From positions 1-39,748 of the forward strand of contig JABLTI010000036.1 in assembly GCA_013166835.1 (NCBI GenBank): DNA of 39,748 nt, in the 5' to 3' direction. This DNA comes from Promethearchaeati archaeon (GTDB lineage: Archaea; Asgardarchaeota; Heimdallarchaeia; JABLTI01). Below, one piece after another: positions 7,039 to 25,853 of the stretch. The translations under genes and the position numbers were made by a program. How positions within the stretch are numbered: the first letter of the stretch is position 1; each line of letters starts with the position of its first letter. The notes under the pieces were generated by a model that was not told the DNA's origin, made no database searches, and was given only the letters and a program-made list of their open reading frames with translations.

Positions 7039-8349
7039 CTACCCTACGTGGTCGACACTTTTTCCTCTGTTTTGCAATCTCAGTTTTAATTCTGCCATTA
7101 AATCCGATCTTTTGAATGTGTCTTCATCTGCATCTGCAGAAGTGATGCTTAACGCTTGATTTAGATATCGATTGAGGTGTAGGATATTCTTTATTGTGTC
7201 CTCTTCTAATGCCGAACAAATAACTGTGCTTAGGTGTTCTGGCGACACTTTTTCGAAGAAAATATCGAAGGTATCAATTTTTATGTGTCCTTCTCCGCCC
7301 ACTCTCACTTTTCCTAAGCGACTCATATATTCTTCTAGATTTATTTTCCTCAAAGTTAATTCAATTGAATTTAATATTTGTGGGTTCCCACCTTGTTGTA
7401 CTGCACCAACTAGTAGCTCGACGTTTTCCGAATACACTGCTATTGCTTCAAAACCGGGATTATTGTTTAGTGTTGCTTCTATTATATCTGTTAATCTTTC
7501 TGCTGTTTTTTCTCTTATTCTATCGGCTTCTGCTTTCTCCATTGGAGGTGATACGCCTACCGCTGGCGGAGTTATTACAAGTTCACTTGTTTTTGTTGGT
7601 TCTGTTAATTTTGGTGGTGTTACTGTAGGTATTGTAATTTTTTCTTTCACTGGTGATGGGGTTTTTGGTGGTGTAACTTTCGATATTCTTTCTTCAACTC
7701 TTTTTGGTTGAGTTATGTAAGATTCCTTAACAACAGGTGGTATAACTGCTGGAGTTGTAGGTGTTGTTGTTGGAGTAGATTCTATTCGTCTTGGTTCGAC
7801 TGGTACTGACATTCTTTTTGGCATCAAATCTAGGAGCATTCTTTGGAAAATTTGATTTGTTGAATCAGAATAAATACTTGTTAGTGTTTTAACCATCTCT
7901 CCTGGGAACATGCTCTCTATTGGTCCGAGTAATTGTGCAATATGTGCTAATCCTTGCTTCACTTGTCCTTCTTTTCCAGGATCTACTTTATTATACAGTA
8001 AATATCCTTTAACTCCCTTGATGGAATTTGCAATGCTTTTCAGCCAAACATTAAAGAAATTCGTCGTTTCTTGATATTTCTGTGTGTTTTGAACGTCAAC
8101 TACAAAAACTATGGCACTTAAATCTTTAATTAATTCAGTATTACCAATATATCCTTGTCGGAACTCCTTTCCACCTCCTGCATCAATGATTGTATAATCG
8201 GTTCTAAGAAAGTCATGTTCATATTTGGCAATCCCTCTTGTTGGTTGTATTTTTAGGAGTTGTGCAGGATCTTTTTTCAAAAAGAATTTTTGATATAGAG
8301 CGGTTTTCCCGACTCCATCCAAACCGATTAGTAATATTTTTTGCATCAT
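7039..8349 (-). CDS. Rag/Arf-like small GTPase fused through a Pro/Thr-rich linker to a C-terminal roadblock-like domain
   Basis: G1 GLDGVGKT, G2 PTRG, G3 DAGG, FVVD, G4 NKVD, G5 TSIY; C-terminal block PGFEAIAVYSENVELL; GGAGGT upstream. Confidence 0.8.
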   Translation of the reverse strand: MMQKILLIGLDGVGKTALYQKFFLKKDPAQLLKIQPTRGIAKYEHDFLRTDYTIIDAGGGKEFRQGYIGNTELIKDLSAIVFVVDVQNTQKYQETTNFFNVWLKSIANSIKGVKGYLLYNKVDPGKEGQVKQGLAHIAQLLGPIESMFPGEMVKTLTSIYSDSTNQIFQRMLLDLMPKRMSVPVEPRRIESTPTTTPTTPAVIPPVVKESYITQPKRVEERISKVTPPKTPSPVKEKITIPTVTPPKLTEPTKTSELVITPPAVGVSPPMEKAEADRIREKTAERLTDIIEATLNNNPGFEAIAVYSENVELLVGAVQQGGNPQILNSIELTLRKINLEEYMSRLGKVRVGGEGHIKIDTFDIFFEKVSPEHLSTVICSALEEDTIKNILHLNRYLNQALSITSADADEDTFKRSDLMAELKLRLQNRGKSVDHVG

Positions 8350-19689: not shown

Positions 19690-21357
19690 ATGAGTGACTC
19701 TGATGAACGTGAACTTGAGCTTCTCCTTCAGCAATTGAAGGAAAATACAGATATTGATCTTCGCAGTCATGCTGCTCAACAACTTGGTTTAAAGAAACAT
19801 AAATCTGATATTGTTGTTCCAGCATTAATTGAAGCTCTTAATGATGATAATTGGTTTGTACGTATTGAAGTAGCCACTGCTCTTGGTAAAATTGGTCGTG
19901 CTGCTGCTGTAGCCATCGGACCTTTGAAAGACACTATGAATGAACCGCGTAACAGACCAAAAAGAGGTATTTTCTATGAAGTGATTCAAACTTTGGAGAT
20001 CGCTAAAAGTGCTGAACCCGAAGTTGAACCAAGTGTGGTTGTTGAAGAGAAAAAGGAAGAAATTACTTTTGAGGAGAAGGTAGAAGAAGAAGTTGCTATT
20101 GTTGAGGAAAAACCCATAGAACCCGTTATAGAAGCTTCTGAAGAAGTTATTGAGGATGTTGTAGAGGAACCTCTTGTAAAAGAGAAAGTTGAATTAATTA
20201 CTGAGGAAATTGTCGAGGAATCAAAAATAGTTGATGAAGTAGTAGTGGAAGACAAACCTGAGGAAACTGTTGCAGAAGTTGTAGAAGAAATTGCTGAAGA
20301 GATTGCAGAGGAAGTCATAGAACTCGAACCAGAGGAAGACGAAGAAACAGAAATCACTGAGGAATACACTGTCGGTGAAGACATCACTGAAATTGTTAAA
20401 GATGTTGCTGAAGACATTACTGAGGATACTACAGATGACGAGATTATAGAGGAAGCTATCGAAGAGATCGCTGAAGAAGTTTTAGAAGATGTTCTCGAAG
20501 AAGAAGTTGGCGACACAGTCGATCATAACATCATTGATGATATTGCTGAGGAAATTACCGAAGAGGTTCTTGAAACTGAAGAAGAGGAAGTAGAAGAACC
20601 TGTTGAAACCATACAAGCTCCAGTGATTGAAGCTCCCGAAATAGAACTGGAAGAAGAAAAAAAAACGACTGAAGACGTAACAGATGCTGTTCCACTTGAT
20701 GAAGTTTTAGAGTTTGAAGAAGATAAAGAAAAAGTTGAGGAACAACCATCAACATTAGAACCCCCAACAGTGGAAGACATTAAAACAGTTAGAAGGTCTA
20801 AAGCTCTAATAAAAATCGTTATTGTTGGTGATGCAGCTGTAGGTAAGACTGCTTTACGAAAGAAATACTGTGATGTTTCTTATAGCGAAGAATACAAATA
20901 TGTTCTCGGAGCAGATTTTGCTACCAAACATTTCTCAAAGAATAATGAAGATTTTTCGTTACAGGTTTGGGATATTGCCGCTAAGGAGCGGTTCGATAAA
21001 AGTAAAGAACTTTTCTTCAAAAGCATTTTTGGAGCTTTATTAGTTTTTGATGTAACAAATAGAGAATCATTCAACAACATTCGATATTGGATTGAAGAAC
21101 TACGAAAAATCGAGAGTAAAGAACTTGCATTAGTTATCGTTGGAAATAAAACCGATTTACGCACTGATAAAGAATCTACTTATATTACCCGTGAAGAAGG
21201 GCAAGAACTTGCTTCAAAGCTGTCAGAAGAAATAGGTTTTGATGTTTCTTATGTTGAAGCTAGTGCTATTAATGGCACTGGTGTAGAGGTAGCTTTCAGA
21301 ATACTTGAAGAAAGAACAACAGATCAATTCTTTGTCGATGAGAGAAAAATGGAGTAA
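19690..21357 (+). CDS. HEAT-repeat / long acidic linker / Rab-like GTPase fusion protein
   Basis: N-terminal HEAT (VVPALIEALNDDNWFVRIEVATALG); about 260-aa Glu-rich linker; KIVIVGDAAVGKT, GADF, WDIA, NKTD, EASA. Confidence 0.88.
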   Translation: MSDSDERELELLLQQLKENTDIDLRSHAAQQLGLKKHKSDIVVPALIEALNDDNWFVRIEVATALGKIGRAAAVAIGPLKDTMNEPRNRPKRGIFYEVIQTLEIAKSAEPEVEPSVVVEEKKEEITFEEKVEEEVAIVEEKPIEPVIEASEEVIEDVVEEPLVKEKVELITEEIVEESKIVDEVVVEDKPEETVAEVVEEIAEEIAEEVIELEPEEDEETEITEEYTVGEDITEIVKDVAEDITEDTTDDEIIEEAIEEIAEEVLEDVLEEEVGDTVDHNIIDDIAEEITEEVLETEEEEVEEPVETIQAPVIEAPEIELEEEKKTTEDVTDAVPLDEVLEFEEDKEKVEEQPSTLEPPTVEDIKTVRRSKALIKIVIVGDAAVGKTALRKKYCDVSYSEEYKYVLGADFATKHFSKNNEDFSLQVWDIAAKERFDKSKELFFKSIFGALLVFDVTNRESFNNIRYWIEELRKIESKELALVIVGNKTDLRTDKESTYITREEGQELASKLSEEIGFDVSYVEASAINGTGVEVAFRILEERTTDQFFVDERKME

Positions 21358-21358
21358 T

Positions 21359-21655
21359 TTAAACTAAATTATCTCCAAAGCATTTTTTTATCAATTTAAA
21401 AATCTTATTTGCTAATTCCTCTGATCCTCCAGAGTCATCCCAAACACTAGTCGGAGCAAAAATCCCCCATAATTCAAAAACATCAATTTCCTTTTCTTGT
21501 TCTAATTTTGTAACTGTTTCGTTTAAGTAGACACCCAAATTTTCACAGGTGTCATACTCAGTTATAGTATATAGAGGACCCTTCGCAATCATTTCTTGTG
21601 CTGCTTGCTTCAGTAAGTCTATTAATTGCGGTATTTCTTGCTCAGTTTCTCGCAT
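21359..21655 (-). CDS. Hypothetical protein (98 aa)
   Basis: ATG start, globular-looking sequence with LWGIFAPTSVWDD motif. Confidence 0.65.
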   Translation of the reverse strand: MRETEQEIPQLIDLLKQAAQEMIAKGPLYTITEYDTCENLGVYLNETVTKLEQEKEIDVFELWGIFAPTSVWDDSGGSEELANKIFKLIKKCFGDNLV

Positions 21656-21893
21656 AGACTAATGATTAGATTTTCTATTTTTAAAAATTCTTGACTAAAA
21701 TTAAGCGAAAATTGCTTCCTTAGTAACAACTTGTGACCTCTTCTTGAGTCTTATTTTTGAGTCTCTAAAAAGTGAATCCGCTTTATATATGATTTAGGAG
21801 GTAGTATAATCAAGAACAAAACTCGGAGAAGAAAAAAAATGAACAGAACCAAACAAAAAATCGAACAAAAAATAAGAAAGGATTACGAACAAA

Positions 21894-21926
21894 CTAGAAT
21901 TAAATTCGCGCTCATCACTGGCGCAT
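21894..21926. repeat. Copy 1 of a 33-nt dispersed repeat with an internal hairpin
   Basis: ctagaattaaattcGCGCtcatcactgGCGCat; 29/33 identical to 22067-22099. Confidence 0.85.
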
Positions 21927-22065
21927 GAATAGCTGGTCAGAAAGACCCAGTCTGCTCTTATAAAGTGACCAAACATAAAGAATAACAAGAACAAAAAAAA
22001 TTGGTGAAAAAAAATTGAACAAAAAAGAACAAATCAAAAATCAAGTAAAGAAAGATAAAGATTTA

Positions 22066-22174
22066 GCTAGAATTAGATTCGCACTCATAACTGGTGCATA
22101 ATCGCCCTGATTCCCTGACAGGTGGGTGGTGGTTCAAGAGTCAACTCTTGAACACTTACGTTCTGGCTTTTTTT
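22066..22174 (+). ncRNA. Candidate structured ncRNA (about 100 nt, multi-arm junction) containing repeat copy 2
   Basis: GCTAGAA/TTCTGGC closing stem, GCAC/GTGC arm, CCTG/CAGG arm, 9-bp GTTCAAGAG/CTCTTGAAC arm, then T7. Confidence 0.45.
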
Positions 22175-22192
22175 ATGTACCACTAATTTTTA

Positions 22193-22699
22193 TTATGGAA
22201 TTTTGTATCCTATTTTCTCTGTTGCTTCTCTTCGTTCTATCTTCTGCTCAGAAGTCTCAATTTTGTCTACTAATGTTCCATCTATTACTCCTATTACTGC
22301 TTTTCCTAATTCTGTTTCTGCTATTATTACTTCCATTATATTCGCGGAAGCCACAAAAATAGTGCAAACTGCAGGATGATTCTTAATATGAGGTAGAACA
22401 TTAATTGGAAATGCATTTTCCATCATTATTACAAATACATGACTCGCCCCTATAGCTAAAGCATTCTCTGCTGCTAATTTTTCTAGCTCCGGATCATTTG
22501 CGGTTACTCGAGTTAGTTTCGGAACAGCTTCATTCATTGCAACCGCACATTTGATTCCCGGTACTGTTGTGAGCATTGTCATGAACAAATCATCTGTTGT
22601 AAATATCGAGAAATTTCCTTGCCCTATTATTATTTGATAATTTGTTTCTGGGTTCTTTATTTTCACACTCTTTGTTTTTACTGTCATTTCTTTCTCCAC
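22193..22699 (-). CDS. Adenosine-specific kinase family protein (DUF355/PAE2307-like)
   Basis: IIGQGNF, AMNEA, AIGASHVF, AFPINVL, ASAN, G.AVIGVIDG, ERR..IGYK; GTG start. Confidence 0.85.
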   Translation of the reverse strand: MEKEMTVKTKSVKIKNPETNYQIIIGQGNFSIFTTDDLFMTMLTTVPGIKCAVAMNEAVPKLTRVTANDPELEKLAAENALAIGASHVFVIMMENAFPINVLPHIKNHPAVCTIFVASANIMEVIIAETELGKAVIGVIDGTLVDKIETSEQKIERREATEKIGYKIP

Positions 22700-22829
22700 A
22701 ATACATTACTATGATTTATTAATTAAATAAACTCTTTTCAATTTTTCAGGTTATTTTTTTGTTTTTTATTAATAGGTATTTATATCATGACCCCGATATT
22801 TTAATTAAAATAATGGAAGTCTGTTCATC

Positions 22830-23279
22830 TTGTCTGATTTAAATAAACGAGAGTTTATTGCTCTACCTCTTGATTTATGCTTCTTTGATCGCAAAAGATT
22901 TGATAAGTTACGAACTGATACCCCTTTGGAAATTATTAGTTATAGGAAATATGACAACGGACTTATTCGCACCAATTTCATAACAAAGACTTTGGAGAAA
23001 GGCAAAGAAACTGATGAAAGAGAGCATTTACTTTGGATTCAGATAATTGATATTGACGGGAAAAAACATGTGATGTATCGTTGTGATTGCAAATATTTCG
23101 AGTACAGACAGCTCCGTCCCGCAAAAAGAATGTTTGACCTAGAAGAAATAAGTAATTCTCTTTGTGTTGTTATTCCTTCAAAGTCATATACAGAGCTAGA
23201 AAAGTTGTTTAATATTGATAAGCACGCTTTTCTTGCTCTAGAAGAGCTGTTTAATCATCATGTACAAATTTCAATATAA
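22830..23279 (+). CDS. Hypothetical protein with SWIM-like Zn finger
   Basis: YRCDCKYF...DKH(AF) resembles CxC..CxH; TTG start. Confidence 0.5.
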   Translation: MSDLNKREFIALPLDLCFFDRKRFDKLRTDTPLEIISYRKYDNGLIRTNFITKTLEKGKETDEREHLLWIQIIDIDGKKHVMYRCDCKYFEYRQLRPAKRMFDLEEISNSLCVVIPSKSYTELEKLFNIDKHAFLALEELFNHHVQISI

Positions 23280-24253: not shown

Positions 24254-25853
24254 ATGTCGAAATCTCAAGTTGAAGCGGATAAAAATCCAGAAAAATCTTC
24301 TCTTGAGTCTACAAATGATGAAATCTCAACCGCTCATGATCTAGCAGTTGAAACAACCACTAGTTTAGTCAGTGGCTCAGCTTTGCTATTCCTTGCAAAT
24401 ATAGTCATTGTGATTGCTGGTTTTATTCTTGCAGCTATTCTAATACATAAAATGCCTGATTATATTTATGGAGCTTCAAGAACACTTCAAAGAATAATGG
24501 TTATAACGACAGTAATTGCCTTGAAGGGGATTGGAAACTCAATCATCATACATTTCTCTGGGAAAAATATTGGGAAAGAAAAAATAAGTGATATGATTAT
24601 TACCCAGAGTTGATGTTTTAGGTAATTTATCCATAGTTAAGCTGCTTTTTGGTTTATTATTTGTATTTCCCATGACCTTTTTAGTTTCTTCTTTAAACAG
24701 CTCTTTATTGGGATTAAAGAAGATTAAACAGAGTGTTGTGGCAATTGGCATTCAAAGTATCGGTAATTTACTATTTTCTACTCTTTTCGTCTATTTGGGT
24801 TTTGGTGTTTTTTCAGTTATTTTGGGGTTAGGATTTGGGAGTCTTCTTTCTGTTGTATATAGTTTACTGGTTAACAAAGAATATATTAGCTCTTTTTTCA
24901 GGAGAAAAAAAGTATTCCGAAATATTTTGCATTCATTTAAATCACTACGATTGATATTATCTTTTTCTTCACCAATTGTTTTAGCATCTATTGCTACACA
25001 ATTAATTGAAGGAGCGATAATCCTCATTATTTTAGGATTTTTCTTTGAAAACGGTCATCTTGCTTATATTCAGATTGCCTATTTCAATTATGTCTTTATG
25101 TTAATAATGGCTACCCGTATTCCACAAGACTCAATTGGACGAATGTTGCTTCCACATCTAAGAACACTTGAGTTAAAAGATGCAAGAAAAGAGCTTCAAA
25201 GAGCTATTAGGTTTATGATGCTATCAACTATTCCGATAAATGTTATTTTTGGTATCTTTACAGAAGAGATACAGAAACTTTTAGAACTTATTATTAGCAG
25301 TAGTAGTTTGTGGCTTGGAACATCAACAATTATTCCTCTACTACGTTTATTAATTATAGGCGGGCAAATTTCATCAGCTTATTACCTCTTAATGAACAGC
25401 AGTATATCTCTTAGAAAACCAATTATTTATGCCAAAACAGAATTCTTTGGATTAATAGCTTTATGTTGTTTTAGTTTCTTCTTTGTTCCTGGGTTTGGTA
25501 TTATTGGAATTGCTTTCGCATTTATAATAGCCTATTCAATAATGCTTCTATATGCGATTTTCAATATGCTGCGTAATGAAATTATTTCACTTCGAAGTGT
25601 AGGTGAGATTTTAAGTCTAAGCTTTATCACTTCTGTTGCTATTGCTATAGTTTATGTCATTCAATTCTTTGTTGGGATTGCTATTTACTGGAAAATAATT
25701 ATAGCCATTTGTTGTTTGGCTCTTAGTTTACTAATAATTCGATTAACAAAAGATGATTTTGTATTTGCCTTTGACTTAATCAAACGACTATTTGGAATAA
25801 GAAAAAAAGATCGATTTGGAAAACAAAACAAACTAAAAATCAAGAAAATTTGA
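24254..25853 (+). pseudogene. Oligosaccharide flippase (Wzx/MOP family), frameshifted near 24600
   Basis: Two ORFs in different frames (24254-24613; second frame open from 24597 to 25853) together resemble one multi-TM flippase (FSSPIVL, PGFGIIGIAFA). Confidence 0.75.

Follow-up and report, generated by a model that had tools for sequence, protein, structure and literature searches.

Two small open reading frames (sORFs) lay in tandem on the forward strand of the window, which is the whole 39,748-nucleotide stretch of DNA that was analyzed. The predicted products of both, ORF-A and ORF-B, ended in ...FALITGA, and each ORF was preceded by a Shine-Dalgarno (SD)-like sequence. A putative promoter block lay upstream of ORF-A, and a T7 tract lay downstream of ORF-B. 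The next gene, at positions 22193 to 22699 of the minus strand, was convergent and matched the Pfam family Adenosine_kin (E 8e-54). The features of the locus that are discussed below were as follows.

21767 to 21790, forward strand: putative promoter block, made up of AAAAAGTGAAT, four bases, and the TATA-like TTTATATAT (21782 to 21790)
21825 to 21828, forward strand: SD-like GGAG, 10 nt before the ATG of ORF-A
21839 to 21928, forward strand: ORF-A, 29 amino acids (aa), ATG start, TGA stop; contains copy 1 of a 33-nt repeat (21894 to 21926)
21933 to 21950, forward strand: inter-ORF hairpin CTGGTC/GAC-C-CAG, -8.5 kcal/mol, z -1.17
22003 to 22007, forward strand: SD-like GGTGA, 7 nt before the start of ORF-B
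22015 to 22101, forward strand: ORF-B, 28 aa, TTG start, TAA stop; contains copy 2 of the repeat (22067 to 22099)
22065 to 22073, forward strand: 5' arm of the predicted closing stem, AGCUAGAAU, on Ala-Arg-Ile codons of ORF-B
22132 to 22153, forward strand: predicted inner 9-bp hairpin, GUUCAAGAG / CUCUUGAAC, 95.6% paired in 10 orthologs
22160 to 22168, forward strand: 3' arm of the predicted closing stem, GUUCUGGCU, abutting the U-tract
22168 to 22174, forward strand: T7 tract, presumed terminator of the ORF-A/ORF-B transcript; T7 to T8 in 8/8 orthologs

Coding evidence for ORF-A and ORF-B

The orthologous locus was taken from seven other genomes of the genus and aligned with that of the window, which gave a set of eight. 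Both ORFs were intact in all eight genomes (16/16 ORFs). The start columns coincided, with ATG in 15 of the 16 ORFs and TTG solely in ORF-B of the window, and the stop codons fell at one shared column while varying among TGA, TAA, and TAG. The only length changes in either ORF were 3-nt indels, found in genomes G004 and G005. Third codon positions varied most in both ORFs; specifically, the variable columns at codon positions 1, 2, and 3 numbered 11, 11, and 20 in ORF-A and 18, 10, and 20 in ORF-B. The four SD-like columns before ORF-A were invariant in all eight loci. The GGTGA before ORF-B was kept in six of the eight, and G004 and G005 had GGTGAAG, shifted by two columns.

Nei-Gojobori dN/dS values for ORF-A were 0.04 to 0.31 in 23 of the 26 computable pairs (28 pairs in total). 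The values for ORF-B were mostly 0.11 to 0.45, with five pairs at 0.66 or above, and the high values for pairs that included the window were 2.03 (with G008), 0.92 (with G010), and 0.79 (with G004); these estimates are noisy because they draw on few sites (about 15 synonymous sites in the case of ORF-B). ORF-B evolved faster than ORF-A. All other frames, on either strand, were open in 0 to 3 of the eight genomes. A sequence-only reading of this DNA had treated the interval as noncoding, having overlooked the forward-strand frame that alone was open in 8/8 genomes. Judged by these comparisons among orthologs, the interval is two tandem paralogous protein-coding sORFs on the forward strand, both presumably translated.

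The repeated element and its apparent compensatory pair

The sequence-only reading had singled out the two 33-nt copies as a structured intergenic element and a candidate novel noncoding RNA (ncRNA). Its description of the repeat was accurate: the copies were identical at 29 of 33 positions, differed at four, and were offset by 173 nt, and an A-rich tract was found 5' of each. The proposed identity was not borne out, as the copies were the 3' coding ends of two paralogous forward-strand sORFs. The 33 nt encode ...(T/A)RI(K/R)FALITGA and run one base into the stop codon. The repeat was also wider than 33 nt, extending over 76 nt at 74% identity (21851 to 21926 versus 22024 to 22099), and a repeat search found further matching pieces in the upstream regions of both copies. 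Therefore, the whole small gene unit, and not only a 33-nt module, was duplicated. On the evidence of the aligned loci, the repeated element is the tail of two neighboring putative small-protein genes rather than a new ncRNA.

Two of the four differences between the copies had been read as a compensatory pair, with GCGC/GCGC in copy 1 (21908 to 21911 with 21921 to 21924) versus GCAC/GTGC in copy 2 (22081 to 22084 with 22094 to 22097) around a 9-nt loop. The base changes were present, but they did not hold up as evidence of structure. The 4-bp stem lay in the codons for ...Ala-Leu-Ile-Thr-Gly-Ala. Its two outer pairs were the GC of one Ala codon against the GC of the other, and its innermost pair was the first base of the Leu codon against the second base of the Gly codon. 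The "compensatory" pair, the third, was the wobble base of Ala against the wobble base of Gly, and both positions were synonymous. This pair was standard in 4/8 orthologs for copy 1 and in 3/8 for copy 2. Among 16 unique gene ends in the fetched DNA, it was complementary in 7, where random bases would give 6, and the codon-fixed pairs held in 16, 16, and 15.

Since the third pair formed at chance frequency, it provided no evidence of structure, and the two synonymous substitutions matched by accident. The copy hairpins folded weakly as RNA (-7.0 and -5.5 kcal/mol; z -2.2 and -1.5), their helices (helices 1 and 3) were 65.6% and 81.3% paired across orthologs, and no covariation of the duplicated 33-nt hairpin was found across homologs. 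The analysis removed a false ncRNA lead, and it indicated that wobble changes in an Ala...Gly-Ala motif can mimic a compensatory pair.

We give almost no credence to a reading in which the interval is a minus-strand feature (a C/D box sRNA or an ORF) or a remnant of a MITE or an operator. This reading drew on the minus strand of copy 1, which contains the box C-like GUGAUGA, and on one minus-strand frame (APVMSANLIL) in which all four differences between the copies are synonymous. However, copy 2 reads GUUAUGA, the box C match was absent from the orthologs (including G003 and G007), visual inspection of the 80 nt that follow on the minus strand revealed no CUGA box D, and no snoRNA or C/D family of Rfam scored. 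The minus-strand frame was closed by stop codons 17 codons apart, and its peptide differed between genomes. There was likewise no sign of a MITE or operator remnant. The inverted repeats were only A/T-rich ones, with arms that were 70 to 86% complementary, and the locus was syntenic in eight genomes, in the same place and with the same flanks.

Promoter block and operon layout

The promoter block was nearly invariant in 8/8 orthologs. A search with its IUPAC pattern returned 13 metagenome loci and 14 genome-contig loci (from species-representative genomes), and many of these 27 loci duplicate genomes already examined. Two tandem family sORFs followed the block in 20/27 loci. Among the other seven, three loci ended at a contig edge, L044 was of the single-ORF type seen on contig C123, and L037, L041, and L047 had ORFs that were missed by the motif filter used for the count. 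Thirteen of the 14 genome contigs were labeled Candidatus Heimdallarchaeota archaeon. Locus L050 was labeled Bathyarchaeia, and its promoter and both of its sORF peptides were the same as those of L033/L016, which belong to the Heimdall-type genus; either the label of the bin or the binning of the contig is probably wrong. In the case of L037, a metagenome contig, the same promoter block was followed by a divergent 32-aa ORF, MNGKININNIKNQIRKELQVPKNLPARIINAY, and then by a G+C-rich hairpin region. The L037 ORF may represent a distant offshoot of the family.

The gap between ORF-A and ORF-B was only about 30 nt in G008 and G010. The stretch before ORF-B of the window resembled the first promoter region in decayed form and was missing in these two genomes, and no separate promoter was established for ORF-B. 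A single bicistronic transcript is the simplest reading of this arrangement. Transcription from the one promoter (21767 to 21790) would yield an mRNA of about 360 nt that ends in the T7 tract (22168 to 22174), and each ORF would be translated from its own SD-like sequence. Three sequencing runs labeled as metatranscriptomes (X1 to X3) contained only contigs of 90 to 95% relatives that covered parts of 21575 to 22435, and these runs may include DNA. Such contigs do not establish that the region is transcribed, on which strand, or where an RNA would end. One of them (21619 to 21894) spanned the presumed promoter, a region that should be absent from any transcript initiated there.

A conserved fold at the 3' end

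The sequence-only reading had also described a forward-strand, multi-arm fold of about 100 nt behind copy 2 that ended in T7, and this observation proved to be sound. The fold (z -2.31) was conserved and covarying. When RNAalifold was run on ten orthologous ORF-B 3' regions, the 9-bp closing stem was predicted unprompted, together with the inner 9-bp hairpin. The closing stem enclosed the last 9 codons of ORF-B, the stop codon, and the conserved inner hairpin, and the codons in its 5' arm were Ala-Arg-Ile/Met across orthologs. The stem was A/U-rich (3/9 pairs were G-C in the window), and its interior was 86 nt long and multi-branched. The inner hairpin was compact and lay 14 nt from the T-run.

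The predicted structure had 25 pairs, 8 of which showed changes on both sides, including 2 pairs in the inner hairpin. Pairing was found in 93.6% of cells overall, in 98.9% of those of the closing stem, and in 95.6% of those of the inner hairpin, as counted on the same alignment from which the structure was derived. The covariation score was not matched by any of 500 shuffles, and pairing in slid controls was 36 to 52%. The closing stem contained GC, GU, and AU pairs at one position and CG, UA, and UG pairs at another. As the sequence-only reading had held, the G:U pairs favored the forward strand; specifically, the two conserved helices had 7 G:U cells and 2 A:C cells, and this excess argues for a forward-strand RNA. 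The covariation showed that, in the folded 3' end of the presumed RNA, the 9 nt before the U-tract pair with the Ala-Arg-Ile codons of ORF-B. We refer to this pairing as the clamp.

No conserved structure was found behind copy 1 across the eight orthologs. The hairpin CTGGTC-AGAAA-GAC-C-CAG, which had been noted there, was present in the window but poorly conserved: it was fully paired in 3/8 orthologs (the closest genomes), retained only its outer 3 pairs in 3/8, and was deleted in 2/8. This hairpin is probably not essential. Functional roles for it and for the small arm at 22106 to 22122 were both rejected on account of poor conservation.

The clamp found stronger support in paralogs. It was scored only in family loci with a T-run 30 to 90 nt after the stop codon; some other loci (of the type found on contig C253) were without such a stem. 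In all 13 unique loci of this kind, the region of the invariant Arg codon paired with the bases immediately upstream of the T-run. The stems were 9 to 17 bp long, had z values of -2.5 to -7.2 relative to shuffled arms, and ended 0 to 2 nt into a T5 to T8 run (13/13). In the nonorthologous paralogs C247 (on a contig of the same genome), L025, L057, and C143, both arms differed in concert. For example, an AGG-TTG-GCT coding arm faced a matching 3' arm in L057.

Two points speak for a structured ncRNA in which the RNA itself is the product and the ORFs are incidental: the conserved fold at 22065 to 22168 and the lack of a match between the ORFs and any known protein family. Nevertheless, we consider such an ncRNA very improbable. 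All 16 ORFs were retained, their changes were biased toward synonymous ones, the identity of the stop codon varied while its column stayed the same, and the indels were 3 nt long; the duplicated 33-nt hairpin was unconserved; and copy 1 was without conserved structure behind it. The sequence-only reading had recognized no RNA family, and a cmscan of 21300 to 22700 against Rfam at E<=10 agreed with it. The scan returned bxd_3 alone (22.6 bits versus a threshold of 70, E 3.7), a chance lncRNA match at 21461 to 21603, outside the element.

We favor the reading in which the fold belongs to the mRNA of two coding sORFs. The clamp and U-tract would together form a 3' end like that of an intrinsic terminator. 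They would halt transcription ahead of the convergent gene and would also shield the 3' end of the mRNA from exonucleases. In archaea, U-tracts and aCPSF1 are reported to determine termination (PMC8716108). A family-wide, covarying stem and U-tract at the 3' end, with a coding sequence as the 5' arm, would offer a testable case in which a hairpin assists termination or protects the 3' end, in a lineage of archaea that is close to eukaryotes.

A possible link between translation and the clamp

One alternative is compatible with coding ORFs and gives the RNA a regulatory role. The clamp would be a translation-sensing, attenuator-like terminator: a ribosome on codons 17 to 20 of ORF-B would block the stem, and termination or 3'-end protection would depend on the translation of ORF-B. 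In support of this, all 13 unique loci had the 5' arm in the reading frame, surrounding the invariant Arg codon, and the 3' arm abutting the T-run, and three loci of the same genome (C123, C138, and C95) had a co-directional gene 27 to 36 nt after the sORF, with T5 to T6 in between in C123 and C138. In contrast, the next gene at the locus in the window was convergent, so read-through would have no obvious target. In addition, the stop codon, where a ribosome would be released, lies 66 nt upstream of the T-run, and by then the ribosome has already passed the 5' arm. Weighing these points, we regard translation sensing at this locus as unlikely, though less so than an ncRNA.

The three loci with a co-directional gene were C123 3653 to 3742, C138 16922 to 17017, and C95 9606 to 9683, and the next genes encoded a bactofilin-domain protein, a 368-aa HTH protein, and a 94-aa ORF product, respectively. 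This layout would suit attenuation.

A broader version of the idea is that, throughout the family, ribosomes that occupy the final third of the ORF gate the mRNA clamps, and that the A/B pair may feed back via the ArsR-type regulators described below. This proposal is speculative, and we rate it slightly below translation sensing at the single locus. If true, it would provide an archaeal counterpart of ribosome-mediated attenuation.

Distribution and properties of the small-protein family

The genome that contains the window (G000) carried 12 copies of the family on nine contigs (C59, C253, C138, C21, C143, C37, C123, C95, and C247). A profile search found 2 to 14 copies in each of the 10 other genomes of the genus. 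No copy was found in the one genome of the sister genus, which is 75% complete, and the 71 genomes of the rest of the class yielded one weak match (E 0.009). Among 1.84 billion representative proteins, there were 40 matches at E<=1e-3, all of them 28 to 86 aa in length. The match ended at most 3 residues from the C-terminus in all 40 but one, a 58-aa sequence. The first ORF on C253 was 65% identical to ORF-A, and ORF-B was only 50% identical to ORF-A. The closer resemblance of the C253 ORF to ORF-A suggests that the A/B pair arose before the loci spread.

All 12 copies in this genome were on the forward strand of their nine contigs, and copies in the other genomes were on both strands. The assembly had no general orientation bias, as A exceeded T in 126/260 contigs and forward coding exceeded reverse coding in 125/260. 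The uniform strand of the 12 copies could be due to chance (probability about 0.004 by contig).

The family had no match in Pfam, NCBIfam, PADLOC, PHROGs, or the ESM Atlas, and a sequence-profile search of the PDB found none (best E 0.58). Full-text searches of the literature on small proteins and sORFs of Asgard or Heimdall archaea returned no listing that concerned the family. Gene callers mostly miss genes of 28 to 29 codons. We document here a previously unannotated family of Heimdall-type Asgard archaea that is multi-copy, confined to one genus, and associated with a shared promoter block.

The products of ORF-A and ORF-B had a pI of 10.3, a net charge of +5, and GRAVY values of -1.08 and -0.81, respectively. 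The longest apolar run in either peptide was 4 residues. An alignment of 33 family sequences had one invariant Gly and one Arg and one Leu that were nearly so, and an AlphaFold2 model of a 31-aa paralog, built with these sequences, consisted of one helix at residues 2 to 30 (pLDDT 91). The two products are thus predicted to be basic, hydrophilic, single-helix micro-proteins, with the helix modeled for the paralog.

These properties bear on another explanation, namely, that the locus is a type I toxin-antitoxin-like module of small, multi-copy, toxic peptides whose folded mRNA is under the control of an antisense RNA. The genes were indeed multi-copy, lineage-restricted, tandem, and shorter than 35 aa, and their mRNAs were predicted to have long-range pairing. 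However, hydrophilic peptides with apolar runs of at most 4 residues leave no room for a membrane helix, and there was no PADLOC match. We find a toxin module very unlikely, if marginally less so than an ncRNA product.

Genomic neighborhood and a possible regulatory connection

In six of the nine loci of the genome, an ArsR-type winged-helix gene was the immediate neighbor of the family sORFs. The three loci with the shared promoter block, including that of the window, had no ArsR-type neighbor. All five close paralogs of one winged-helix-turn-helix (wHTH) family of 208 to 214 aa adjoined family sORFs. The genome had 21 HTH_5 matches, and 5 of these adjoined family sORFs. By a rough estimate, about 1% of random loci would have such a neighbor by chance (given ~3,600 ORFs of at least 100 aa), and the family was statistically linked to ArsR-type regulators in this sense. 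The adjacency in 6/9 loci points to a role in transcription regulation or to control by it. The two micro-proteins would function in the cytoplasm, bound to a larger partner that is either a nucleic acid or a regulator. A complex prediction for a 208-aa wHTH neighbor and the 31-aa paralog gave a score of 0.02, which we counted neither for nor against binding.

Other ORFs near the family genes were also recorded. A conserved 38-aa sORF (LGEKK...MFYSDGLI) lay between the wHTH gene and the family sORF on C21 (about 25357 to 25473) and C143 (about 8213 to 8329), 214 and 225 nt, respectively, beyond the end of the wHTH gene. It may be another unannotated micro-protein. In the window, positions 19690 to 21357 of the forward strand encoded a 555-aa protein with N-terminal HEAT repeats, a long acidic linker rich in E, V, and I, and a C-terminal Ras/Roc-type small GTPase domain (Pfam Ras, E 2.6e-39), an Asgard-style GTPase fusion. 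The region of the sORF operon was flanked by a 98-aa ORF (21359 to 21655, minus strand) and a 149-aa ORF (22830 to 23279, forward strand). Neither ORF had a Pfam or PHROGs match, and the 98-aa ORF had two weak PADLOC matches only (E 0.003 and 0.011).

Taken as a whole, the best explanation of the locus is that two coding sORFs are carried on a bicistronic mRNA that ends in a 3' clamp and U-tract, and that their micro-protein products bind a partner. We consider this explanation highly probable.

Comparison with known systems

One known class comprises prokaryotic micro-proteins of less than 50 aa that act by binding larger proteins or nucleic acids. The products of ORF-A and ORF-B resemble them in size, in the possession of their own SD sequences, in their narrow lineage, in their absence from curated families, and in the prediction that a single helix makes up the whole fold. 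They differ in forming a 12-copy family, mostly of A/B tandem pairs behind a nearly invariant promoter block.

The 3' end is similar to a bacterial intrinsic (Rho-independent) terminator in that a stem of 9 to 17 bp has a 3' arm that abuts or overlaps a T5 to T8 run by 0 to 2 nt, and in that the arms covary. In contrast to the bacterial element, whose loop has 3 to 8 nt, the A/U-rich stem described here encloses a multi-branched interior of 86 nt. Moreover, its 5' arm belongs to a coding sequence, and it occurs in an archaeon; the terminator role is putative.

A second parallel is with the leader-peptide attenuators of the pyrBI type, in which the ribosome interferes directly with the formation of the terminator. 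The common ground is a short ORF that shares sequence with one arm of a terminator-like stem, behind which a U-tract lies. The locus in the window differs because it has no downstream co-directional gene and because the protein encoded by the ORF is under purifying selection. Leader peptides are usually not conserved in this way.

Finally, hok/sok and AapA/IsoA are type I toxin mRNAs with long-range fold-back pairing. The likeness lies in multi-copy genes for peptides of about 30 aa whose coding sequence pairs with the 3' end of the mRNA. The family described here differs from these toxins in that its peptides have no hydrophobic helix and the predicted pairing does not sequester a ribosome-binding site.
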